From positions 4,261-68,260 of the forward strand of contig CAYSDJ010000008.1 in NCBI GenBank assembly GCA_964429775.1: a stretch of DNA of 64,000 nt, given 5' to 3'. Shown one piece after another: positions 30,455-46,848 of the stretch. Source of the stretch: an uncultured Rhizobiaceae bacterium. Its GTDB lineage: Bacteria > Pseudomonadota > Alphaproteobacteria > UBA828. Every line of letters begins with the position of its first letter. Position 1 is the stretch's first letter. The translations under genes were made by a program, and so were the position numbers. The notes under the pieces are model-generated. The model had not been told where the DNA came from. It did not search any database and saw only the letters and a list, made by a program, of their open reading frames with translations.

Positions 30455-30798
30455 ACCGGATGCTCAAGCGCCGAGAGGCCGGGCGTCGAGGCGAACATCC
30501 AACCACTGAACAGAAGCTTGACCGGCTCGCCGCGCTGTTTCTCACGGATTTCCAGAAAGGCGGCGCTTTCCGGTGGTTCCTCGGGCGGCTTTTTGTGACA
30601 CGCCTGGGCAGTAATCTCGAGCGTTCCAAAGCTGACCGGCACGCCGAGCTCGGCGCTAAACTCGGATATCCGCGCGGTTACCTTATCGAGCCCCTGTAGC
30701 ACCACGGCCGTGCGTTCCTGCGCGGATACGCTCATCGGGCTCAACAGCAGGCCGATTGCCAGCACGGCAACGGCGCCTAGCGCACCTTGACTATTCAT
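30394..30798 (-). CDS. DUF2155-like secreted protein
   Basis: ATG at 30798 overlaps the amidase stop (ATGA). Signal peptide present. The conserved block [18 protein letters not shown] is consistent with DUF2155. Confidence 0.55.
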
Positions 30799-32198
30799 CC
30801 GAACGGCCCTGGTGGCTTTTTGTCCACCCACGGGCAGGCCTCCTCGAAGGCCGCGGCGGCGCGGAAAATATCCGTCTCCGAATTGATCCGTCCGACCATC
30901 TGAAATCCGACCGGCAGGCCCGCTTCGGTAAACCCGGCCGGAATCGATGCGGCGGGCTGGCCGGTGGCGTTGAAAGGATAGGTATAATAAACCCAGGATA
31001 CGGCATTGCGGTCCTCCCACCCGGGCGGCACGTTCAGGCCGACACCGAAGGCGGCGACCGGCAATACCGGCGACAGCAGCAGGTCATAATCGTCAAAAAA
31101 CTCACGCACCTGTTCGCGAAAGGCGTAGCGGGCAAAGAGTAGCGTGAAATAATCCTCGATCGAATTATCAAGCGCGCCGGACAGCAGTTCGACCACGGCG
31201 GGATCCAATTGATCGGCCGAGTCGGACAAAATCGCTTTTAGTTTGGTTCCGACCCCGCCATAAAATTCCGCCGCCCAGATATCGAGCGGCTCGTCGCCCA
31301 GCGGCGCCTCGACCAAATCGACCGTGCAGCCCAGTTGCTCGAAGGTCCGCGCCGCCTGTTCAGTGATTTGCAAAACCTCCGGATCGCTGCGGGCATAGCC
31401 GAAGGTTGGGCTCCATGCGATGCGCATGCCTTTGACCGATTGGCCGCACGCAGCGAGATAATCCGGCACCGGCCCGGCGACGGCAAAAGGATCGCGCCGG
31501 TCATGGCCGGAAATGACGCCAAGCAGCAGTGCAGCGTCGCGCACGGTGCGGGCGAGCGGGCCAACATGGGCAAGTGTCGGCGTCGCCGGCACCGGAAAAA
31601 GCGGCACGCGCGAGAATTGCGCCTTGATACCAAACAGGCCGCACAGCGAAGACGGAATCCGAACCGAGCCGCCGCCGTCGGTGCCGAGCGCAAACGGCGT
31701 GAGCCCGGCGGCAACGCTCGCCCCCGCGCCAGCGCTCGAACCACCCGGCGTCTTGGCCACATTCCAGGGATTGCGCGTGATGCCGGTGAGCGGACTGTCG
31801 CCGGTGCCCTTGCAGCCGAATTCACTGGTCGTTGTTTTGCCGATGATGCAGGCACCGGCGGCGCGTGCGCGTTCGACCGAGGGCGCATCGACGGGGCCAA
31901 TATTTTCGGCGAACGGTTTGGAGCCGAAGGTCCAGGGCACATCCGCCATGGAGATCAGGTCCTTGACCGATAGGGGCAGGCCATGCAGGGCGCCCAGCTC
32001 CGCCCCCGCCATCACTGCCTGCTCCGCTTTACGTGCGGCTTCAAGGGCAATTTCCGGCGTGAGGGTGACGAAACAATTGAGCGCCGGCTCGAGCGCCTCC
32101 TGTCGCGCGAGGGTATCCGCGACCAGTTCAACAGGGGAAATTTCCTTGGCCGCGATCATGCGCGTGAGATCAAGAGCGGTGGCGTAAGCGAAACTCAT
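30795..32198 (-). CDS. amidase signature (AS) family amidase
   Basis: GGSSAGAGASVAAGL... Ser-cisSer-Lys amidase-signature core, 467 aa. Confidence 0.85.
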   Translation of the reverse strand: MSFAYATALDLTRMIAAKEISPVELVADTLARQEALEPALNCFVTLTPEIALEAARKAEQAVMAGAELGALHGLPLSVKDLISMADVPWTFGSKPFAENIGPVDAPSVERARAAGACIIGKTTTSEFGCKGTGDSPLTGITRNPWNVAKTPGGSSAGAGASVAAGLTPFALGTDGGGSVRIPSSLCGLFGIKAQFSRVPLFPVPATPTLAHVGPLARTVRDAALLLGVISGHDRRDPFAVAGPVPDYLAACGQSVKGMRIAWSPTFGYARSDPEVLQITEQAARTFEQLGCTVDLVEAPLGDEPLDIWAAEFYGGVGTKLKAILSDSADQLDPAVVELLSGALDNSIEDYFTLLFARYAFREQVREFFDDYDLLLSPVLPVAAFGVGLNVPPGWEDRNAVSWVYYTYPFNATGQPAASIPAGFTEAGLPVGFQMVGRINSETDIFRAAAAFEEACPWVDKKPPGPFG

Positions 32199-32211: not shown

Positions 32212-33279
32212 TCAAATCACGCCGGAGCCACGGTCGAGCGCTTCCGGTGCCGTGAACACGCAGGCGGAGAAACGCGCTTCGAGATCGGCCCGGTCGAGCC
32301 CCTTGCCAATGACGACGATACGGGTTTCAGGCTCGCCGCGTGGCCAGCTATCGGCATAGGTGGGCGGGCTGAATGTCGCTTGAACGCCCTGCAGAATAAC
32401 CGGCTGATCGACATTATCGAACTGCACCAGCCCTTTGACACGGTACAAATCCTCACCATGCATCTCGGTCAGCTCGACGAAAAAGCGCAGCACCAGGTTC
32501 CAATCCATAACGCGCTTTTCCTGCAGACAAACGGCTGTGACTTCCGGCGTGTGCTCATGATCATGCGCGTGGCCGGCCTCCTCCTCGGTCGAGCCAAGCC
32601 AATCGCCGATCGCATCATCACGATTTTTGGGATCGAAGATGTCGAGGTCGACGATCTTGTCGACCGGCAAGGCACCGTGCGAGGTGACCTCCTTGCGCGA
32701 ATAGGGGTTGAGCGCGCTTACCACGGCGACGGTGCGCTCGAATGCCGCATCGTCGACCATGTCGCGCTTGTTGAAAATTATCTTATCGGCAATGGCGATT
32801 TGCTTTTGCGCCTCGATCGAATTGGCAATCTCGATTTCGACATGCTTGAGGTCGACCACGGTGAGAACCGCATCGAGCTTAAATGTGAGATCGAGCTTTA
32901 TGTCGGTATAGAGCAGTTTGGCCAAGGGCGACGGGTCTGCCATGCCGGTGGTTTCGATGATGATCTTATCGAACTCGATCTGCGGCTCGGCCAGTCCGAC
33001 TTTGCGCATGAAGAGCTTGTTGAGGCCGTCCAAGAGGTCGCCCTGTGCGGCGCAACAGATACAGCCATTGGTGAGCTCAAGCATATCCTCGGTGGCGCGC
33101 GCGATCAGATCGCCGTCGATACCGATTTCGCCGAACTCATTGACGATGACGGCAATTTTTCCGGCGTCCGGGTCGCTCAGCACATGATTGATCAGGGTGG
33201 TTTTGCCCGCACCCAAAAAGCCGCTCAGCAATGTGATCGGAATGCGTTGATCGCCGTCGCGCGAATCAAGCCGAGGCAT
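32212..33279 (-). CDS. COG0523 (CobW/Nha3/ZigA-type) GTPase metallochaperone with His-rich stretch
   Basis: Walker A GFLGAGKTT, a CICC metal-binding motif (GCICCA), and a His-rich linker (EEEAGHAHDHEHTPE). Confidence 0.85.
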   Translation of the reverse strand: MPRLDSRDGDQRIPITLLSGFLGAGKTTLINHVLSDPDAGKIAVIVNEFGEIGIDGDLIARATEDMLELTNGCICCAAQGDLLDGLNKLFMRKVGLAEPQIEFDKIIIETTGMADPSPLAKLLYTDIKLDLTFKLDAVLTVVDLKHVEIEIANSIEAQKQIAIADKIIFNKRDMVDDAAFERTVAVVSALNPYSRKEVTSHGALPVDKIVDLDIFDPKNRDDAIGDWLGSTEEEAGHAHDHEHTPEVTAVCLQEKRVMDWNLVLRFFVELTEMHGEDLYRVKGLVQFDNVDQPVILQGVQATFSPPTYADSWPRGEPETRIVVIGKGLDRADLEARFSACVFTAPEALDRGSGVI

Positions 33280-33290
33280 GTGCCGTCAGA

Positions 33291-33995
33291 TCAGCCGTCC
33301 ACCATCGCCCAGGCGCGAACCGGCGAGCCGCTGCCGTCACCTATTTTGAGCGGCGGACCAAAAAACTGAAACTCACCTTTGCCGATGAGCTGCTCTAGGT
33401 TGATCAGCCATTCATAGTGGGTGATGCCCCGGTCGCGGCAGACGCGATGGTTGGGAAAGAGATTATCCGACGGCTTGTCGGTCGACGGCCCTTCGACGCC
33501 ATGCAGTTTGGACCCTCTGTCCGCCAGCCAATTGGTCGCATCGGCGGTAATGCCGGCATTGCTCCACACCACCTTGACGTCGGGGTAATGGCGCTCATGC
33601 AAACCGGTGCACATCAGAACAATATGGCCATCGATTTTGACACCGGCCTTTTCCTCTGCCGCTTCTATGTCGGAGATATCGATATCGCCGAGATCCGGGA
33701 TATGGCGCATATCGAGGCATACCGATTTTCCCATAAACATATCGAGCGGCATATTGTCGACCGTGTCGCCATTGGGGTTGGTGTGATAGAAGGCATCCAC
33801 ATGGGTGCCGATATGATCGACCATACCCAAGAATGTGGTGGCGAACGAAAGCCGGTCGTTGGGCGTTCCGAGTTCGAAATCCTTGAGGGTTTTTTCGTGC
33901 GTGTAATGCGGAACGATGACGGGCCGCTGGAACAGTTTATGCGCCGGCATATTGTCGGTCATCTTTAATGTCAGATCGATCATCTGTTGGCCCAT
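33291..33995 (-). CDS. cyclase-family protein (kynurenine formamidase-like metal hydrolase)
   Basis: HxGTHxDxPxH-type motif (DHIGTHVDAFYH), typical of the putative-cyclase fold. Confidence 0.7.
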   Translation of the reverse strand: MGQQMIDLTLKMTDNMPAHKLFQRPVIVPHYTHEKTLKDFELGTPNDRLSFATTFLGMVDHIGTHVDAFYHTNPNGDTVDNMPLDMFMGKSVCLDMRHIPDLGDIDISDIEAAEEKAGVKIDGHIVLMCTGLHERHYPDVKVVWSNAGITADATNWLADRGSKLHGVEGPSTDKPSDNLFPNHRVCRDRGITHYEWLINLEQLIGKGEFQFFGPPLKIGDGSGSPVRAWAMVDG

Positions 33996-34096: not shown

Positions 34097-34870
34097 TCAG
34101 CTGGCAACGGTCCCGGCGGAGAGGTAGGCGCCGTCAAATCCGGCCAACGTCATCAGCTTCTCGCGATCGAGAATGCGCAAGATGCCGCCGCGCAGATCCA
34201 TCAGTTCCTCATCACGCAAGGCGCGCAGCGTCCGGTTGACATGAATTGTCGTGAGACCGAGCGCATCGGCCAAATGACGCTGCCGGAGCGGCATGAAGAT
34301 GTGCCCGTCATGGACCGCACCGCGCCAATGCAGCAAGGCATCGAACTCAAGCATCAGATGGGCGATTCGTTCCTTGGCGGAACGCCGGCCCAAATTTGTC
34401 ATATGTTCGTCCGCCATGGCGAGCTCGCGTTCATAGCAGGCATTGGCACTGGCGCTAAGCTCATCATTCTCGCGCATATGCTTCTTCATCAATTCGACAT
34501 CGAATTCACTGACCACGGCCTCGGAAAGCAATTGCACCGAATAAGCCAGCGGGCGCGGCGACAAAGCGCTCAGCGTCACCGGATCTCCTGGTAACAGGAA
34601 CGAAAGAATTTGCCGCCGGCCATCACTCAGCATCCGATAGCGCAACCCCCAGCCATCGAGAAGCGAATAGAACGCGGCTGCGTTCTGACCTTGGCGCAGC
34701 ACGGTCGTCGGCTTGGTTACCACACTCTGGCGCACGCGAACGGCCTGAATTGATTCCAGCCGGCGCCAATCAAGTATCGCTGCAAAAGTGAACCCCTGGC
34801 TATTTGCCGCGAAACCATAATTTTCGCCGCCAATCGCGGGCGCATGTTTCATGTTTTCCTTAGGGCTCAC
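34097..34870 (-). CDS. Crp/Fnr-family transcriptional regulator
   Basis: cNMP-binding beta-roll and a C-terminal HTH (TIHVNRTLRALRDEEL). Confidence 0.8.
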   Translation of the reverse strand: MSPKENMKHAPAIGGENYGFAANSQGFTFAAILDWRRLESIQAVRVRQSVVTKPTTVLRQGQNAAAFYSLLDGWGLRYRMLSDGRRQILSFLLPGDPVTLSALSPRPLAYSVQLLSEAVVSEFDVELMKKHMRENDELSASANACYERELAMADEHMTNLGRRSAKERIAHLMLEFDALLHWRGAVHDGHIFMPLRQRHLADALGLTTIHVNRTLRALRDEELMDLRGGILRILDREKLMTLAGFDGAYLSAGTVAS

Positions 34871-39947: not shown

Positions 39948-40847
39948 ATGAATAAGAAAACACATTCCGGTTTTTTCGGCGTCTATCCGATGCTGTTGGC
40001 GTTTTTTCAGGCCGACGGCAGTCTTGATTTGAACACAACCGCCCGGCAAGTCGATGCCCTGGTTAAACACGGCGCGCATGGCTGTGCGGTGATGGGTTTG
40101 GGGACGGAGGTCAACAAGCTCTCCTATCAGGAGCGCCGTGCGGTGATCGATGCAGTGGCCGAGCGTCTGGATGGCCGCCTGCCCTTCTGTGTCACTGTGG
40201 GCGAGAACAATGTTGCCGGGCAGATCGAATTCGCCCGCGCCGCCGAGGCCGCCGGCGCCGATTGGCTGATCCTCCAGCCGCCAACCGTCGGCGAATTGCC
40301 GGAGCGGGAATTGCTGCGCTTTTTCGGCCAGATTGCCGAGGCGATCAGCCTGCCGCTCGGCGTGCAGAATGCGCCGCAATATTTAGGCATTGGTCTCTCC
40401 AATGCCGGATTGCGCGATCTGCACGCGCAGCACGAGAATTTCAAAATTGTCAAAATCGAGGATGACCCGCTCGCCTTGCCGCCGCTGCTTGACGCCACCG
40501 ATGGTGCGCTCGATGTGTTTGTCGGGCGCGCCGGCCTGGAGGCATTGGAAGTCTTCCGCGCCGGCGCCTGCGGCCTGATACCCGGCTTCGAAACTTTCGA
40601 CCGCTTGGCCCTGTTGTTTGATCATCTTGATGAAGGGCGCGATGCCGAAGCCGATGCGCTCTATCAAAGCGTCGAGCCCGCACTCGTCTTCATGCTGAAA
40701 TCAATCAACCATTTCGTTACCTATTCGCGCGAACTATCCGCCCGCCGCCTGGCGCTTGCGCATATACACCACCGGCTCGGCGTTGATGTGACGCCGCTCG
40801 GTCAGCGCCTGGTCGAGAAAATCGCGTTGCAGTTGGGCCCCCTTTGA
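39948..40847 (+). CDS. dihydrodipicolinate synthase/N-acetylneuraminate lyase (DapA) family protein
   Basis: TIM-barrel class I aldolase blocks (GCAVMGLGTE...GVQNAPQYLG). The stop overlaps the downstream HK start. Confidence 0.7.
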   Translation: MNKKTHSGFFGVYPMLLAFFQADGSLDLNTTARQVDALVKHGAHGCAVMGLGTEVNKLSYQERRAVIDAVAERLDGRLPFCVTVGENNVAGQIEFARAAEAAGADWLILQPPTVGELPERELLRFFGQIAEAISLPLGVQNAPQYLGIGLSNAGLRDLHAQHENFKIVKIEDDPLALPPLLDATDGALDVFVGRAGLEALEVFRAGACGLIPGFETFDRLALLFDHLDEGRDAEADALYQSVEPALVFMLKSINHFVTYSRELSARRLALAHIHHRLGVDVTPLGQRLVEKIALQLGPL

Positions 40848-41989
40848 GCGGCACACGAAAAACAACCGCGCGTCTCGACAATAGCGAAATCCTCGCCGCT
40901 GCCGGGCATGATTTGCGCCAACCGATGCACTCGCTCAATCTGGTTTTGGGCGCTCTCGCCGGACGTGCCGAAGATTCCGAAACCGCCGCACTGGTGAACA
41001 GCGCACAGATTTCAGCCGACGGCGTTACCAGTGTGCTGGAAACGCTGCTCGGAATTGCCACCATGGACGCCGGCGGCGCGGCGCCGGAAGTTTCCCAATT
41101 CGCCGTGCAGGACCTGCTCCAGCATCTCAGCGAACAATTTACCCAGCGCGCCGCCAATAAGGGTCTTCAGCTGCGCATTATGCCCTGCACCCTCAGCATC
41201 AGGAGCGACCGCGTGTTGTTGCAGCGGATATTGGAGGCGCTCCTCTCCAATGCCATACGCCATAGCGAAAGCGGGCATATCCTGCTCGGCTGCCGCCGAA
41301 CAAAGCGTGCGCTGCGTATCGGTGTGTTGGACCAGGGGCCGGGCCTGAACGAAGAAATGGCGGCGCGATTTTCCACCGTCAACAGCCAAGATGGCGCGTT
41401 TTCGAAATCAAGCTGGCGCGGCTATGCCTTGGGCCTCTCGATCGCGCAATATATTTGCGCCGCACTTGGCCATGACATGACCGTGGTGTCGCGCCAAGGA
41501 AAAGGTGCCGCTATTTGGCTGAAAGTGGATTTGGTCGGGGCGCAGACCAAAAGCACCGCAGAAGCCGTTTCCCCTCCCCCCCTCGCCCCGGAAGAGAGCG
41601 ATGCCGCCATCGCTATCATCGAGGACGACCCGGATATTCTATTTGCAACAACGCAATTCCTAACCGGTTGGGGATATCGCGTCTGCGGCGGCAAAACAGC
41701 AGCGGCGACAATTCAGGATATCGAGACGAATGGCGGCGGCGCCTGCCCTGATCTGGTGCTGTCGGATTTCAATCTGCCCGAGGGGCAAACGGCGGTGGAC
41801 GCGATGGCCGAACTGAACCATCACTTCGACACGGAAATCCCGGCCATCATTATCACCGGTGACCCGTCCGCGCCGGGTATCGCCGAGGCACGGGAGCTCA
41901 ATTACGAAATTCTGAACAAGCCGCTGCGCGCCGCCAAGCTGCGCGCGCTGGTTCGCTACACCCTGGCGGAGAGACCGCAAACATCGTGA
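40844..41989 (+). CDS. cytoplasmic hybrid histidine kinase (HisKA-HATPase-REC) with no sensor domain
   Basis: H-box AAGHDLRQPMHS at residue ~22 and N/G boxes (LSNAIRHS, GYALGLSIAQ). C-terminal receiver with LVLSDFNLPEGQ and no TM segment. Confidence 0.8.
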   Translation: MSGTRKTTARLDNSEILAAAGHDLRQPMHSLNLVLGALAGRAEDSETAALVNSAQISADGVTSVLETLLGIATMDAGGAAPEVSQFAVQDLLQHLSEQFTQRAANKGLQLRIMPCTLSIRSDRVLLQRILEALLSNAIRHSESGHILLGCRRTKRALRIGVLDQGPGLNEEMAARFSTVNSQDGAFSKSSWRGYALGLSIAQYICAALGHDMTVVSRQGKGAAIWLKVDLVGAQTKSTAEAVSPPPLAPEESDAAIAIIEDDPDILFATTQFLTGWGYRVCGGKTAAATIQDIETNGGGACPDLVLSDFNLPEGQTAVDAMAELNHHFDTEIPAIIITGDPSAPGIAEARELNYEILNKPLRAAKLRALVRYTLAERPQTS

Positions 41990-42030
41990 GGCGCGCCGGC
42001 ATCTGCCGAACGCGCCTCACATTTCATGGT

Positions 42031-42411
42031 TTACCAGTGCCAAACCTGGTCATGCGCATCGCATATGGCGGGAATATTCGAGCGCGATACCTGCTTGACG
42101 CCATCAACCAGATTTGCGTCCGCCAAGCCGCGCTCGGCCAAATCCTCGCTGGCGATATACACCTCTACGCCTTTGCCGACCAGGCCGCCGATATCGCGCG
42201 CCATGTTCGGCGGTTGGGTTTGTTTCCAGGCGCCAAATGAGAGCCCGGATGCGTCCTGGCCGTTGATCGCGTAATTGACGGCATTGCCGCGCAACAAAAC
42301 ATTGAGATCAGCACCCGCACCTTTCATCGCGTGGCTGATCCAGACGATGGTATCGTCTTGCTCCTCTTGCGTGGCGCGGTAGGCCGATTCGATAACCTGC
42401 AATACTTTCAT
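42031..42411 (-). CDS. DsrH/TusB-like sulfur-relay family protein
   Basis: Small protein, third gene of the DsrEFH-like triad, with a TusB-like LLRGNAV...W C-terminus. Confidence 0.45.
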   Translation of the reverse strand: MKVLQVIESAYRATQEEQDDTIVWISHAMKGAGADLNVLLRGNAVNYAINGQDASGLSFGAWKQTQPPNMARDIGGLVGKGVEVYIASEDLAERGLADANLVDGVKQVSRSNIPAICDAHDQVWHW

Positions 42412-42420
42412 GATCCCCTC

Positions 42421-42834
42421 CTAGCGCGTGCCGATGGTGAGCGTGTTGTCGGACTCACCAGCCATGGACCAAAGATCCCCCGGCGTGCCGCGCCTGACAC
42501 CATCGATGGCATCGCCGACGCCGCGTTCATCGACACAGAGACCGCAATTCACCCAATCCAGTTTACCGCCATTTTTCTTGGCCTCGGTGATCAGCGCCGC
42601 GACCCAATCCTTGGGCAAGGGATGGTTTTCCTCTTCCACGTCATGTCCGTGCACCGCATTGGGATGCGCCGCCTGCTGGGCAAATGGCACACATACGGCC
42701 CCCTCATAAGCGAATACGTTTATGTCATAGCCGCGCGCCGCGGCGATATTCATCAGACGCAGCGCCGTGGTGTTGCGCGCGCTTTCATAGGGCGCGTCCA
42801 TCAGCGCAAATGTCAGTGTTTTCTTGTCAGCCAT
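42421..42834 (-). CDS. DsrE/TusD-like sulfur-relay protein with conserved Cys (NCGLC) and His-containing insertion
   Basis: MADKK...APYES N-terminal block. A Cys lies in the position of the TusD/DsrE active-site Cys (WVNCGLCVDERGV). Confidence 0.55.
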   Translation of the reverse strand: MADKKTLTFALMDAPYESARNTTALRLMNIAAARGYDINVFAYEGAVCVPFAQQAAHPNAVHGHDVEEENHPLPKDWVAALITEAKKNGGKLDWVNCGLCVDERGVGDAIDGVRRGTPGDLWSMAGESDNTLTIGTR

Positions 42835-42844
42835 TATCCCCTCC

Positions 42845-43171
42845 CTAATGCCACATGGTTTTGCAGCCGTCGGCCAAACCGTCGACGACAACATCCAGCG
42901 GCGATGATTTCACCCCGACCTGCAATTGCGCCGCATCAATGGCGCGTTCGCGCAGCGAAAAATCATCCGCCAACACTTCGATCCCCGCTTTTATGGCGCT
43001 TTCCAGCGCATCGGAACTGGCGCCTTGACGCGCCGGCAACACACCGTTCTGAACGAGAAACAAGGTGACCTCATTGCCTTCGTTCGCGAGGCCCCGGGCG
43101 AGGTCGAAATAATTGCCAACATCAGCTGATTCATAAGGGTCGCGAGATTCGATTAAGAGATATTTGCTCAT
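42845..43171 (-). CDS. DsrE/DsrF-family protein (no active-site Cys; DsrF/TusC-like)
   Basis: MSKYLLIESRDPYES...VTLFLVQNGV has the DsrE/F fold pattern. It is the first gene of the triad. Confidence 0.55.
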   Translation of the reverse strand: MSKYLLIESRDPYESADVGNYFDLARGLANEGNEVTLFLVQNGVLPARQGASSDALESAIKAGIEVLADDFSLRERAIDAAQLQVGVKSSPLDVVVDGLADGCKTMWH

Positions 43172-43321
43172 CTATTGTCCTCCCCATTTAAGTCGCCCAA
43201 CAATGCTAGGTCCGCTTGCGCCCGTCGGCCAATAAACTAATCGTGTGCGAACGTTGGCGCGACCGGGTAGCATGGCGAAAATTCATACAGCCATGCGAGT
43301 TTCAACAAGAAGGGAGACAAA

Positions 43322-43912
43322 ATGAGTTCCGACGCAGCGGATGCAAAAACAGCGCTTAGAGTGAGAGCGCTTGAATCGTTGCTGCTCGAAAAGGGGCTGA
43401 TCGAGACGGACGCGATCGACGAGCTGGTCGATATGTTCGAAAACCGGCTTGGCCCCTGGAACGGCGCCAAGGTCGTCGCCCGGGCATGGACCGACCCCGC
43501 CTTTAAGGAGCGGCTGTTGCAGGACGGCACGGCGGCGCTGGCGGATATGGGTTTCGACACCATCCAGGGCGAAGAAATGGTGATCGTCGAGAACACCCCA
43601 GCTATCCACAATGTTATCGTCTGCACGCTCTGTTCCTGCTTCCCCTGGGCGGTCCTCGGCCTGCCGCCGGTATGGTATAAATCGGCGCCCTACCGGGCCG
43701 AGGCGGCGCGCGACCCGCGTGGTGTGCTGCGCGAATTCGGCACCGAAATAGACGGCGAGACCGAAGTACGCGTGTGGGACAGCAATGCCGAGCTACGCTA
43801 CATGGTGTTGCCCGAGCGGCCGGCGGGAACCGACGATATGGACGCAGCGGCGCTGGCCGAGCTGGTCACACGCGATTCGATGATCGGTGTCAGCAAGGTG
43901 GCGCCGCCATGA
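43322..43912 (+). CDS. nitrile hydratase alpha subunit-like protein (Co-type claw motif VCTLCSC)
   Basis: Near-collinear with Rhodococcus NHase alpha. The [10 protein letters not shown] metal-binding claw lies at nt 43622..43639. An RBS AGAAGGGAG precedes the ATG. Confidence 0.9.
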
Positions 43913-43937
43913 GCGCGCGCCTGAGAGGAGACCTGAG

Positions 43938-44249
43938 ATGAACAGCATTCACGATATGGGCGGCATGCACGGCCTCGGACCGCTTGATCTTTCAGACGAT
44001 GATATCGTCTTTCATGCCGCCTGGGAGGGCCGCGTCATGGCGCTGGCCCGCGCCATGATGGCGGGCAAGCACTTCAATCTCGATGAATACCGTCACGCCA
44101 TGGAGCGCATCGACCCGGCCCGCTACCTGCAACTCAGCTATTATGAGAAATGGCTGGAAGGCACGCTCACGATGCTGATGGAGAAGGGCGTTATCACGCA
44201 GCTGGAGTTCGATGCGCATTTAAACAAATTGACAGAGGCGGATTCGTGA
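43938..44249 (+). CDS. nitrile hydratase beta subunit, N-terminal-half protein (split beta)
   Basis: MNSIHDMGGMHGLGP...FHAAWEGRVMA matches the NHase beta N-domain. It ends at the domain linker. Confidence 0.8.
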   Translation: MNSIHDMGGMHGLGPLDLSDDDIVFHAAWEGRVMALARAMMAGKHFNLDEYRHAMERIDPARYLQLSYYEKWLEGTLTMLMEKGVITQLEFDAHLNKLTEADS

Positions 44250-44599
44250 TGCCGGTGGTCAATCTCGAATTGGTCAAGAGCCTCTACAAAACCCCTGGCG
44301 CCGCCCGCTTGCCGGTCGATGTGGCGCCGCGCTTCAAGGCCGGCGATTCGATCGTCGCGCGCAATATCAACCCGCCCGGTCACACCCGCCTGCCGCGCTA
44401 TATCCGCGACAAGAAAGGTGTTGTCGAACACGATCTCGGCGTCTTCCACCTACCCGATTCACGCGCCGCCGGCAGCGGCGATAACGCGCAGCACATGTAC
44501 ACCGTGCGCTTCGAAGCACGCGAAGTCTGGGGCGACGAAGCGCCGGCCAATGACAGCCTGCGGATTACACTGTGGGACGACTATATGAACCCGGCCTGA
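44249..44599 (+). CDS. nitrile hydratase beta subunit, C-terminal-half protein (split beta)
   Basis: The ATG overlaps the previous stop (TGATG). FKAGDSIVARNINPPGHTRLPRYIRDKKG...YTVRFEAREVWG matches the NHase beta C-domain. Confidence 0.8.
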   Translation: MPVVNLELVKSLYKTPGAARLPVDVAPRFKAGDSIVARNINPPGHTRLPRYIRDKKGVVEHDLGVFHLPDSRAAGSGDNAQHMYTVRFEAREVWGDEAPANDSLRITLWDDYMNPA

Positions 44600-44621
44600 G
44601 CGGCAAATAAGAGAAACAGCG

Positions 44622-45344
44622 ATGCGAAAAATCCTCGCCGTGCCGAACCTCACCATGCCCGAGCAACGTGCCGGCGCCACCCTGCCGCGCGACAGCGACG
44701 ATGTGGTTTTCTCCGAGGCATGGCAGGCACATGCCTTTGCCGTGATTATGTCGCTCTATCAGGATGGTCATTATAATTGGGCCGAATGGGACGATTATCT
44801 CGGCCATTGCATCCAGGCACCCGGGCATTTCGCCAAAGCCCCGGGCGAAGACACCGAAGGCGGCGAGGAAGCGATTCGTACTGGAAGCAATCGAAGCCCG
44901 TTCCTTACCGCCTGTGAGCGTGACGGCGCGAAATATTATCATTTTTGGCTCGCCGCGACGGAACAATTGCTCGACGCCAAAGGCCTGGTGAGCACCGCCG
45001 AATTGGATGCGCGTGTTGCCGCCATCGACAAGGCCGAACAGTCCGGGCCGCGCTTTAGCGCCGGAGGGCGCGTTCTGGTGCGAGACATCAAGCGCGAGGG
45101 CCACACCCATCTGCCGCTCTATCTGCGCGGCAAGACCGGCGTGGTGGAAAGCGACCGCGGCTTGTTCGTCTTTCCCGAAGGTGCCGGGCATAATCATGAT
45201 CACGATCATAAGCATGACGGTGCCGACACCCTGCAGCATGTCTTTTGCGTCCGCTTTTCAGCAACGGATATTTGGGGTGAATCAGCTTCCGCCACACATG
45301 ATTTGAATTTCAATCTCTGGGACTATCAGTTGGAGGCAGCATGA
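44622..45344 (+). CDS. full-length NHase beta-like paralogue / accessory (activator)-like protein with His-rich insertion (GHNHDHDHKHDG)
   Basis: The N-terminus (LPRDSDDVVFSEAWQAHAFAV) resembles NHase activator/accessory proteins. The C-terminus (GGRVLVRDIKREGHTHLPLYLRGKTG...FCVRFSATDIWG) resembles the beta C-domain. Confidence 0.7.
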   Translation: MRKILAVPNLTMPEQRAGATLPRDSDDVVFSEAWQAHAFAVIMSLYQDGHYNWAEWDDYLGHCIQAPGHFAKAPGEDTEGGEEAIRTGSNRSPFLTACERDGAKYYHFWLAATEQLLDAKGLVSTAELDARVAAIDKAEQSGPRFSAGGRVLVRDIKREGHTHLPLYLRGKTGVVESDRGLFVFPEGAGHNHDHDHKHDGADTLQHVFCVRFSATDIWGESASATHDLNFNLWDYQLEAA

Positions 45345-45943
45345 TGGAAAAATCTGCTGCAGGTGAGCTGGCACGCCTGATTCGTGAGGATGACGGCGCT
45401 CTCTATGCCGACGATGCCGCCGCCCGCGCCATCGCCATCGTCATGAACCTGTTTCACCAGGAGCATTACGCCTGGCCGCAATGGGTCGACAAGTTCAGCG
45501 CCGAAATCGATGCGCCGGGGCATTTCCGGCATTCGCCGGATAGCGCCGAACACGCCGAGGCCGTGCTGAGCGGTGACGCCAAGCGCATCAATCGCAATTA
45601 CGCCGAGCTGTGGCTCGCCGCTTGTGAAAAGCTATTGCAAGAAAAAGGACTAACGACGCCAGCTGAACTTAGCGCCAAGCTGGCAACGCTACAGCCTAAA
45701 CAACCGCCCGCCCATGCCTTCGCGCTGGGCACGCGCGTTATTGTGCGCGATATCGAACCGTCTGAATCAGATCATTTGCCGCTATTCATACGCGGCAAGG
45801 CCGGCAGCGTGGAACGGCAATTGGGCGAGGCTAAATATAATGTTCGCTTCACGGCGCAAGAGATTTGGGGCACCGACGCACCCGGGCGGGACAGTTTAAA
45901 CTTCACCATCGCGCACCAATATCTGTCGCCCGAAAACTCCTAG
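45341..45943 (+). CDS. second full-length NHase beta-like paralogue / accessory-like protein
   Basis: The ATG overlaps the previous stop (ATGA). Features are DDGALYADDAAARAIAIV... and a beta C-domain-like GTRVIVRDIEPSESDHLPLFIRGKAG...YNVRFTAQEIWG. Confidence 0.7.
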   Translation: MMEKSAAGELARLIREDDGALYADDAAARAIAIVMNLFHQEHYAWPQWVDKFSAEIDAPGHFRHSPDSAEHAEAVLSGDAKRINRNYAELWLAACEKLLQEKGLTTPAELSAKLATLQPKQPPAHAFALGTRVIVRDIEPSESDHLPLFIRGKAGSVERQLGEAKYNVRFTAQEIWGTDAPGRDSLNFTIAHQYLSPENS

Positions 45944-46848
45944 AGCCAGGCGGCGCCGCGCATGCCGCTTTCGGGCCCGTGTGCCGCTTTGACCAAGCGC
46001 GTGGCGGTTGGTTTCGTGCCGGTATGGCGCCCCCAAAGCTCGGGAACCTGCTCATAGAGGCCGCTGATTTCCGACAGGCCGCCGCCGAGAACAATGATAT
46101 CGGGGTCGAAAAAATTGATCGCGCTCGCCAGTGCGCGGGCCAGACGCTCGGCATATTGCGAGATCGCCTGTTTGGCCGCCGCGTCGTTCTCCTCGGCGAG
46201 CCGCGAGATTTCCTTGGCTTTGGCCTCGCTTCCGCTCAACGCCTGATAATCGCGCGACAAGGCGGCGCCGTTGAGCCAGGTTTCGATACATCCTATCTGG
46301 CCGCAGCCGCACATTGTTTCCGCGCCATCCTCCGGCGTGCGCCACGGCAAGGGATTGTGGCCCCATTCGCCGGCAATGGCGTTGGCGCCGGTGACGATTT
46401 GCCCATTGACGACAATGGCGCCGCCGACACCGGTGCCGAGGATGACGCCAAACACCAGCTTGGCGCCGGCAGCGGAACCATCCGTCGCCTCCGAGAGAGC
46501 AAAACAATTGGCGTCATTGCCGATATGGACCGGACGCTCAAACAGGCGCTCGAGATCGGGGCGGAACGGCTTGTCGCGAAGCCACGGCAAATTGGCCACC
46601 ATGACGGGCTCGCCCGAACGATTGACCACGCCCGGCATGCTGATGCCGATCCTGTTGGCCCGCCCGGCATGTTCCTCGAGATGCGAGACGGTATCGGAAA
46701 TATTCTCGACGGTGCCGTTATAATCGCGCGATATTTCGCTGCGAAAGCGCGCCCGTTCCCTGCCCTCACCGTCGAGGATCATGGCTGCTATTTTTGTTCC
46801 GCCGATATCGATTCCGATACGCATATCAGCGCCGCCGGTTTCATTCAT
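45940..46848 (-). CDS. ROK-family sugar kinase (N-acetylglucosamine kinase-like)
   Basis: MRIGIDIGGTKI and the CxCGxxGC zinc motif (CGCGQIGCIE). An alternative start lies at 46824. Confidence 0.8.
   Translation of the reverse strand: MNETGGADMRIGIDIGGTKIAAMILDGEGRERARFRSEISRDYNGTVENISDTVSHLEEHAGRANRIGISMPGVVNRSGEPVMVANLPWLRDKPFRPDLERLFERPVHIGNDANCFALSEATDGSAAGAKLVFGVILGTGVGGAIVVNGQIVTGANAIAGEWGHNPLPWRTPEDGAETMCGCGQIGCIETWLNGAALSRDYQALSGSEAKAKEISRLAEENDAAAKQAISQYAERLARALASAINFFDPDIIVLGGGLSEISGLYEQVPELWGRHTGTKPTATRLVKAAHGPESGMRGAAWL

Follow-up and report, generated by a model that had tools for sequence, protein, structure and literature searches.

The minus strand between positions 42031 and 43171 of a 64,000-nucleotide stretch from an uncultured Rhizobiaceae bacterium (contig CAYSDJ010000008.1; the whole stretch is called the window below) consists of three back-to-back open reading frames (ORFs), T1, T2 and T3, whose products are three different DsrE-fold subunits. 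We give even chances to the reading, drawn from sequence comparison, that this triad specifies a stand-alone DsrEFH-like heterotrimer that would handle sulfane sulfur on a single cysteine of its middle product, Cys97 of T2. The plus-strand operon beside it encodes a nitrile hydratase (NHase), and the distribution of the two gene sets at equivalent sites indicates that triad and NHase are independent cassettes in a lineage-specific juxtaposition and not a functional unit.

A first-pass annotation, made from the letters of the window, had called the three products DsrE/DsrF/DsrH-like, and this family assignment is correct, albeit at a distance. In searches against Pfam DsrE (PF02635, gathering score 22.7), T1 (25.5 bits) and T2 (42.9 bits) exceeded the gathering score and T3 (21.7 bits) fell just below it, and T3 likewise stayed under the gathering score of Pfam DsrH (20.4 bits, gathering score 24.4); the profile check suggested by the annotation thus holds for T1 and T2 and is narrowly missed by T3. 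Many T3 homologues carry a precomputed match to PF04077 (DsrH), and the T3 family profile, built on 67 genomes, matches Allochromatium vinosum DsrH (2hy5_C) at E=3.7e-4. AlphaFold (AF2) models of T2 and T3 reached predicted local distance difference test (pLDDT) scores of 82.7 and 85.1, respectively. When the T2 model was compared with the PDB using Foldseek, eight matches were returned at E<=1e-3, all eight with the DsrE fold; the top matches of the T3 model were YchN, DsrE, TusD, DsrF, DsrH, TusB and TusC, with E down to 1.4e-7 and template modelling (TM) scores up to 0.77 against DsrE-fold structures, TusB, TusC and TusD being among its matches at E<=1e-3. For both models the matches at this threshold were exclusively DsrE-fold proteins, including DsrE-like proteins from Sulfolobus and Syntrophomonas. 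Against the PDB, T2 used as a sequence or as a profile matched YchN and DsrE weakly, and the only entries ranked above these were ankyrin-repeat noise. Alignment of family profiles with hhalign related T1 to T3 with a probability of 95.7% (E=9e-9), and by this measure T1 and T3 are clear paralogues and T2 is further diverged; the same program, set to compare family profiles with individual TusD and TusB sequences from E. coli, a comparison too weak to be informative, gave probabilities of 1-37%.

T2 alone among the three subunits has conserved cysteines, the pair Cys97-x-x-Cys100 within WVNCGLCVDERG. The first-pass annotation had proposed that the middle gene keeps a cysteine at the TusD/DsrE position, embedded in NCGLC, and that its product bears a histidine-containing insertion, and both proposals hold. 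In full-length numbering, which we use for all T2 residues, the NCGLC cysteine is Cys97; the T2 family hidden Markov model (HMM) aligns it with Cys78 of YchN, and 'C97-GLC100VDE-R104-G105' of T2 lines up with 'C78-VAAALR-R85-G86' of TusD (C-x6-R-G motif). Across an alignment of 58 genomes from many phyla, E17, T23, R26, E44, Q54, H57, N59, H71, W94, C97, C100, E103 and R104 are invariant and H62 is nearly so. The insertion, approximately residues 47-72, separates strand 2 from helix 2, holds Q54, H57, N59, H62 and H71, and is modelled with a pLDDT of about 55.

The other two subunits are conserved at other kinds of residue. T1, aligned from 52 genomes, has no conserved cysteine and carries a near-invariant Asp69 at the active-cysteine position; its 'SLRERG' aligns on 'SLRERG' of TusC in an HMM alignment to TusC, YchN and TusB. 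T3, compared across its 67 genomes, has no invariant or near-invariant cysteine and displays an acidic EEQDD loop with invariant E17, Q18 and D20 and near-invariant E16 and D19; its 'VYxxxEDLxERG' corresponds to 'VYALNEDLIARG' of TusB. The C-termini of T1 (...WH, encoded at 42845-42856) and T3 (...VWHW, 42031-42045) end in a conserved Trp-His(-Trp), DsrH and TusB likewise end in Trp, and the T1 and T3 ends may be a docking or interface feature. One 202-residue protein of the representative library (P0251) is an apparent T2-T3-like fusion whose T2-like part has neither the His loop nor the Cys-x-x-Cys, while other apparent fusions in that library are mostly frameshift read-throughs; if real, P0251 supports physical association of T2 with T3 and reveals a Cys-less branch of the family.

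The layout of the triad is compact. As the first-pass annotation had stated, the three genes are small, consecutive and on the minus strand (Table 1); they are separated by gaps of 9-10 nt, with a GGAGG-type ribosome-binding site ahead of each, and their order is F-like, E-like, H-like. T2 starts with MADKK at 42834, in agreement with all homologues; an upstream ATG at 42894 would give a 157-residue ORF, and this longer version was rejected, as every homologue begins at MADKK.

The same arrangement recurs far outside the window's lineage. A pattern scan with one genome per species yielded 71 loci, whose T2 relatives are 55-86% identical, from Alphaproteobacteria, Gammaproteobacteria (Woeseiaceae and Halieaceae among them), Betaproteobacteria, Acidobacteriota, Nitrospirota, Nitrospinota, Binatia, Krumholzibacteriia, Myxococcota, SAR324 and others, more than 10 phyla in total, the main hosts being Alphaproteobacteria, Gammaproteobacteria, Acidobacteriota and Nitrospirota (Nitrospira and related metagenome-assembled genomes). 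Gene order and strand are the same in 72 other loci, at least 69 of which have T1, T2 and T3 all present, and such order is therefore far beyond chance. The family is sharply isolated, with only 251 clusters (50% identity) at E<=1e-3 among 1.84 billion representatives; at 90% identity, T2 forms about 6,000 clusters and T3 about 4,200, mostly metagenomic. Databases label these proteins 'DsrE family protein', and the automatic annotation of the Joint Genome Institute (JGI) names T2 'tRNA 2-thiouridine synthesizing protein D'. Base composition of the triad cassette and its GC content at third codon positions are not distinct from those of the flanks, with no sign of recent foreign origin, and literature searches returned no paper on the triad family or on any DsrE-NHase link.

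No conserved neighbour accompanies the triad. The 122 immediate neighbours in the census fell into 124 Pfam families, of which Lactamase_B was the commonest (7), and no family occurred more than twice among 103 second neighbours; Dsr families did not recur (NIR_SIR domains were found in two of the 122 immediate neighbours), yeeE/yedE was absent from the recurring neighbours, and PADLOC defence-system models gave no match. The sole recurring operon partner is a persulfide dioxygenase-like gene of the metallo-beta-lactamase (MBL) fold, adjacent and on the same strand in five loci, where four of the genes begin 8-26 bp after T3 and the fifth (L043) lies about 260 bp upstream of T1. Genomes carry roughly one or two persulfide dioxygenase-like genes by our own estimate, and against this assumed background five such genes among 122 neighbours represent a large enrichment. 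In three loci (L019, L074 and L043) the C-terminal part of the partner matches rhodanese-type NCBIfam models, as expected of a fused rhodanese domain, and we take the N-terminal part to be ETHE1-like from its motifs, the curated cutoffs not being reached; the partners in L025 and L028 match the dioxygenase domain of Blh with 382-387 bits. As an observation apart, a small YjiS/DUF1127-like gene stands just 5' of the triad in L007 (9066-9209) and L008 (782-925), and reading by eye suggested the same gene upstream of T1 in L040, L042 and L044; it is not kept more widely.

Taken as a stand-alone DsrEFH-like system, T1, T2 and T3 would join as unlike DsrE-fold subunits in one heteromer, built like DsrEFH and TusBCD as a trimer or as a pair of trimers, an assembly indirectly supported by their strict co-occurrence and order and by the short gaps between the genes. 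In complexes of the DsrEFH/TusBCD type the subunits stand 1:1:1, alpha2-beta2-gamma2 in crystals. T2 would hold the only reactive centre, with Cys97 predicted at the end of strand 3 and the start of the next helix, where TusD and DsrE have their persulfide-carrying Cys78, and presumably backed by Cys100 and by the flexible loop with its invariant His, Asn and Gln. Cytoplasmic sulfane sulfur would be accepted, held as a cysteine persulfide and passed on by Cys97, Cys100 might resolve or protect this persulfide, and T1 and T3 would act as scaffold and docking subunits. The sulfur partners would be encoded elsewhere in the genome, except that in a minority of genomes the triad may feed, or be fed by, the persulfide dioxygenase/rhodanese of the same operon. 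The triad as a whole is an accessory cassette whose movement is not tied to the genes beside it.

Several observations weigh against this reading. The persulfide dioxygenase linkage is found in five of about 72 loci, in about four independent lineages; DsrC/TusE was not recurrent next to the triad in the neighbour census, and neither a TusA-like ORF nor a CPxP motif was found within the triad loci (up to 20 kb around each). T2 keeps 55-86% identity across phyla, all three subunits have many invariant polar residues, and this conservation, with its His, Asn, Gln and Glu residues and the EEQDD loop of T3, points to a catalytic or metal-binding site more readily than to a plain carrier. A Cys-x-x-Cys placed where a helix begins would also suit a redox dithiol or two cysteines that bind a metal. 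Lastly, back-to-back promoters could still give some co-regulation with the NHase in the window's lineage.

The best-surviving alternative takes the triad for a metalloprotein or redox enzyme on a DsrEFH scaffold and not for a sulfur relay; we consider this rather unlikely. In this view Cys97, Cys100, His57, His62 and His71, perhaps helped by acidic side chains of T3, would coordinate a metal ion or make up a catalytic dithiol centre. Conservation across phyla of the cysteine pair, three histidines, Asn and Gln in T2 and of the T3 EEQDD loop argues for such a centre, as do an overall level of conservation unusually high for a DsrE-family protein, the low pLDDT of the His loop, expected if the loop became ordered upon ligand binding, and the Cys-x-x-Cys of the closest structural match, YchN, which has no proven sulfur-relay role. 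However, no metal-handling genes recur by the triad in the neighbour census, its only recurring partner is sulfur-related, and literature searches found no DsrE-fold metalloenzyme. Only tentatively do we propose that the triad is the first example of a third, so far overlooked type of heterotrimeric DsrEFH/TusBCD-like complex, spreading as a context-free cassette among many, apparently mostly aerobic phyla, whose Cys-x-x-Cys and His/Asn/Gln loop would make a catalytic or metal-dependent centre, for example for persulfide or polysulfide processing ahead of a persulfide dioxygenase, in place of a passive relay cysteine.

Less probable still, and in our view quite unlikely, is that the triad is a TusBCD analogue relaying sulfur to MnmA for tRNA 2-thiouridine where canonical tusBCD is missing. 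Three DsrE-fold subunits with one active cysteine in the D/E-type subunit, the JGI label of T2 and the absence of metabolic gene context, which would suit a housekeeping role, all speak for it, but the NCBIfam equivalog cutoffs for TusB, TusC and TusD are far from reached (at E<=0.1 T1 and T2 had no match, and T3 scored 20.5 bits with TusB, cutoff 49.2, and 18.1 bits with TusC, cutoff 94.15), comparisons with the E. coli proteins are marginal, and the gene order differs. Moreover, the triad occurs in Gammaproteobacteria such as Woeseiaceae and Halieaceae, a class in which canonical tusBCD is common, and a tRNA role is made less likely because the cassette is patchy across phyla and because, at one and the same syntenic site, some close relatives carry it and others lack it, unlike a housekeeping tRNA modification system. 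The first-pass annotation had allowed that the triad might be the housekeeping tusBCD operon at an unrelated location; it is not tusBCD, although in other genomes it does lie at unrelated sites.

The comparison of sites separates the triad from the NHase. Among 73 triad loci, counted without copies of the window's own contig, the NHase adjoins the triad in a single one, that of the nearest relative (L011). In L009, where T2 is 86% identical and both flanks are the same, the triad is present without the NHase, and 97 bp replace positions 43172-45939. Conversely, a metagenome scan with NHase alpha returned 10 loci, none of them with the triad; four of these (L081-L084) have an NHase alpha 83-94% identical to that of the window and the same flanks wherever the contig extends. 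In L081 and L082 the NHase operon directly follows the histidine kinase gene, and L081 aligns to window positions 41568-42003 and again to 43263-43960; between the two, 35 bp stand where the window has the 1,259-bp block 42004-43262. One site thus occurs in three configurations, with both cassettes (the window and L011), with the triad only (L009) and with the NHase only (L081-L084). This hot spot (about 42004-45939) lies between the histidine kinase gene at 40844-41989 and a ROK kinase gene at 45940-46848, and no integrase, repeat or composition signal was seen in it.

The 150-bp spacer (43172-43321) that separates T1 from the plus-strand NHase alpha gene is correspondingly composite. The first-pass annotation had viewed it as a possible shared regulatory region; the spacer is present as described, but it consists of two separately inherited halves, a T1-proximal half, including CGCACACGAnnAGTTTATTGGC, that is kept in triad-only L009, and an NHase-proximal half (CCGGGTAGCATGGCGAAAATTC...GGGAGACAAAATG) that is kept in NHase-only L081-L084. 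The T1-proximal half contains an element common to the window, L011 and L009 (Table 1), which from its conservation is probably the triad's own promoter or operator in this lineage. The search for spacer motifs across relatives that the annotation had recommended yielded this lineage-specific element: in the last 110 nt upstream of T1, read by eye in 68 sequences, the ribosome-binding site was the only motif common to different phyla, and other motifs were lineage-specific. Rfam searches detected no riboswitch or leader in the spacer (E-value mode) or in 20 whole triad loci (gathering mode), and a consensus scan of 41900-43450 for sigma-70 promoters and terminators returned nothing.

The enzyme itself had been described as thiocyanate hydrolase-like, a description that does not stand: the alpha subunit scores 303.2 bits with the NCBIfam model nitrile_alph (TIGR01323, cutoff 249.85) and 174.5 bits with thiocyan_alph (thiocyanate hydrolase gamma; TIGR03887, cutoff 291.45), and because it passes the former and fails the latter, the enzyme is a nitrile hydratase by curated models. 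Active sites of NHases contain modified cysteines, and the idea that the triad supplies sulfur carriers to this enzyme, co-regulated through the spacer, and might handle thiocyanate-released sulfur or mature the enzyme's cysteine ligands, could draw on those cysteines, on the divergent layout shared with L011 and on a beta subunit split in two genes as in thiocyanate hydrolase, yet we regard it as highly improbable and largely refuted by comparative genomics, given the curated scores, the single shared adjacency, the sites with one cassette only, the absence of the triad from all 10 NHase loci and a spacer whose halves each travel with their own cassette. The co-regulation with a thiocyanate hydrolase-like enzyme that the first-pass annotation had suggested is not borne out.

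Table 1. Features of the triad, the neighbouring NHase operon and the sequences around them (window coordinates).
Feature	Position	Strand	Description
T1	42845-43171	-	108 aa; TusC/DsrF-type DsrE-fold subunit
T2	42421-42834	-	137 aa; DsrE/TusD/YchN-type subunit
T3	42031-42411	-	126 aa; full-length DsrE-fold subunit, C-terminal half DsrH/TusB-like
Triad cassette	42004..43262	.	Three genes and about 90 bp of own upstream region; delimited by presence/absence
Triad upstream element	43227..43251	-	CGCACACGATTAGTTTATTGGCC (minus-strand reading); common to window, L011 and L009 (L009 without NHase)
Inverted repeat	41986-41995 / 42011-42020	.	Perfect 10-bp repeat GTGAGGCGCG/CGCGCCTCAC with 15-nt loop, where T3 and the hybrid histidine kinase gene (40844-41989) converge
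NHase cassette	43263..45939	+	Gene block with about 60 bp of own upstream region
NHase alpha	43322-43912	+	Assigned by NCBIfam
NHase beta-N	43938-44249	+	103 aa; N-terminal half of beta
NHase beta-C	44249-44599	+	116 aa; C-terminal half of beta
Two beta-like accessory proteins	44622-45344, 45341-45943	+	Assigned by NCBIfam/Pfam

The inverted repeat downstream of T3 may be a hairpin that terminates transcription in both directions; lacking a T-run, it was not picked up by the terminator scan. Within the NHase operon, the alpha subunit carries the motif VCTLCSC, and the stop codon of beta-N overlaps the start of beta-C in TGATG, which suggests translational coupling of the split beta subunit. 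The split is also present in independent assemblies and in the relatives L081-L083, and in this architecture the window's enzyme is like thiocyanate hydrolase, though its alpha subunit scores as nitrile hydratase. Each of the two accessory proteins combines an NHase-accessory-like N-terminal part with a beta-C-like domain, and the first of them has a His/Asp-rich stretch, GHNHDHDHKHD, that could bind cobalt; two beta-like accessory genes in one NHase operon seem unusual. About 10 kb from the NHase, the minus strand carries an amidase-signature gene (30795-32198), a gene (32212-33279) for a CobW-family GTPase that may serve as chaperone for cobalt or zinc, a cyclase-family gene (about 33291-33995) and a gene for a Crp-type regulator (about 34097-34870). 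The amidase could round off a nitrile-to-acid pathway, and CobW could provide the NHase with cobalt.

These results remove a tempting but false lead, in which a sulfur relay would work together with an enzyme for thiocyanate or nitriles, and illustrate how two accessory cassettes that meet at one chromosomal hot spot can mimic a divergent regulon. Functional evidence for the triad is thin. Recognition of DsrEFH type II changed views on sulfur oxidation in sulfate reducers (PMC13293266), and a further DsrEFH type in aerobic heterotrophs and nitrifiers, if true, could bear on the handling of reactive sulfane sulfur.

How, then, does the triad compare with known DsrE-fold systems? DsrEFH type I from A. 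vinosum (PDB 2HY5) resembles it in having three adjacent genes for three different DsrE-fold subunits and an E-type cysteine at the Cys78 position, and in the T3-DsrH profile match and Foldseek TM-scores of 0.54-0.7. By contrast, the triad lacks the dsrAB/dsrC/dsrMKJOP context in the neighbour census, its order is F-E-H instead of E-F-H, T2 has a second cysteine and the conserved His loop, and T3 is a full-length subunit of 126 residues without the conserved cysteine (Cys20) of the 102-residue A. vinosum DsrH. Classical DsrEFH was rejected as an identity, both the dsr context and the DsrH cysteine being missing, and most of the lineages that host the triad are not known to oxidise sulfur by the Dsr route. 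TusBCD from E. coli (PDB 2D1P) shares the heteromeric DsrE-fold architecture, predicted for the triad, and the motif correspondences of each subunit noted above (C-x6-R-G in TusD, 'SLRERG' in TusC and the T3 counterpart in TusB); it differs in subunit sizes and gene order and is a conserved housekeeping locus beside ribosomal protein genes, whereas the triad is patchy and cassette-like. Identity with TusBCD was rejected on the curated NCBIfam models, which are not matched.

DsrEFH type II of cable bacteria and sulfate reducers, recently recognised in 2026, is a divergent heterotrimer of about 33 kDa that standard annotation had missed; it has its active cysteine, Cys67, in the E subunit, is syntenic with tusA and yeeE/yedE and co-occurs with reductive dsrAB (PMC13293266). 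The triad is similarly a sequence-divergent DsrEFH-like set with its single active-cysteine subunit of the E type, but it amounts to about 41 kDa and has neither tusA nearby nor any recurring neighbour, and the synteny with tusA and yeeE/yedE was not encountered in the triad loci; the two are set apart here by description. Single-subunit DsrE groups have also been classified (PMC11094781). YchN from E. coli (PDB 1JX7) is the best Foldseek match of both T2 and T3 and has a Cys78-x-x-Cys81 pair like that of T2, but it is the product of a single gene and a homo-oligomer (six identical chains in 1JX7), whereas the triad comprises three diverged paralogous subunits, of which T2 has the extra His loop and is the only one to keep the cysteines. 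The triad is a compact, highly conserved three-gene family that corresponds to none of the three heteromeric DsrE-fold systems described so far, and for specialists in sulfur metabolism it is a moderately interesting variant of an established type of complex.

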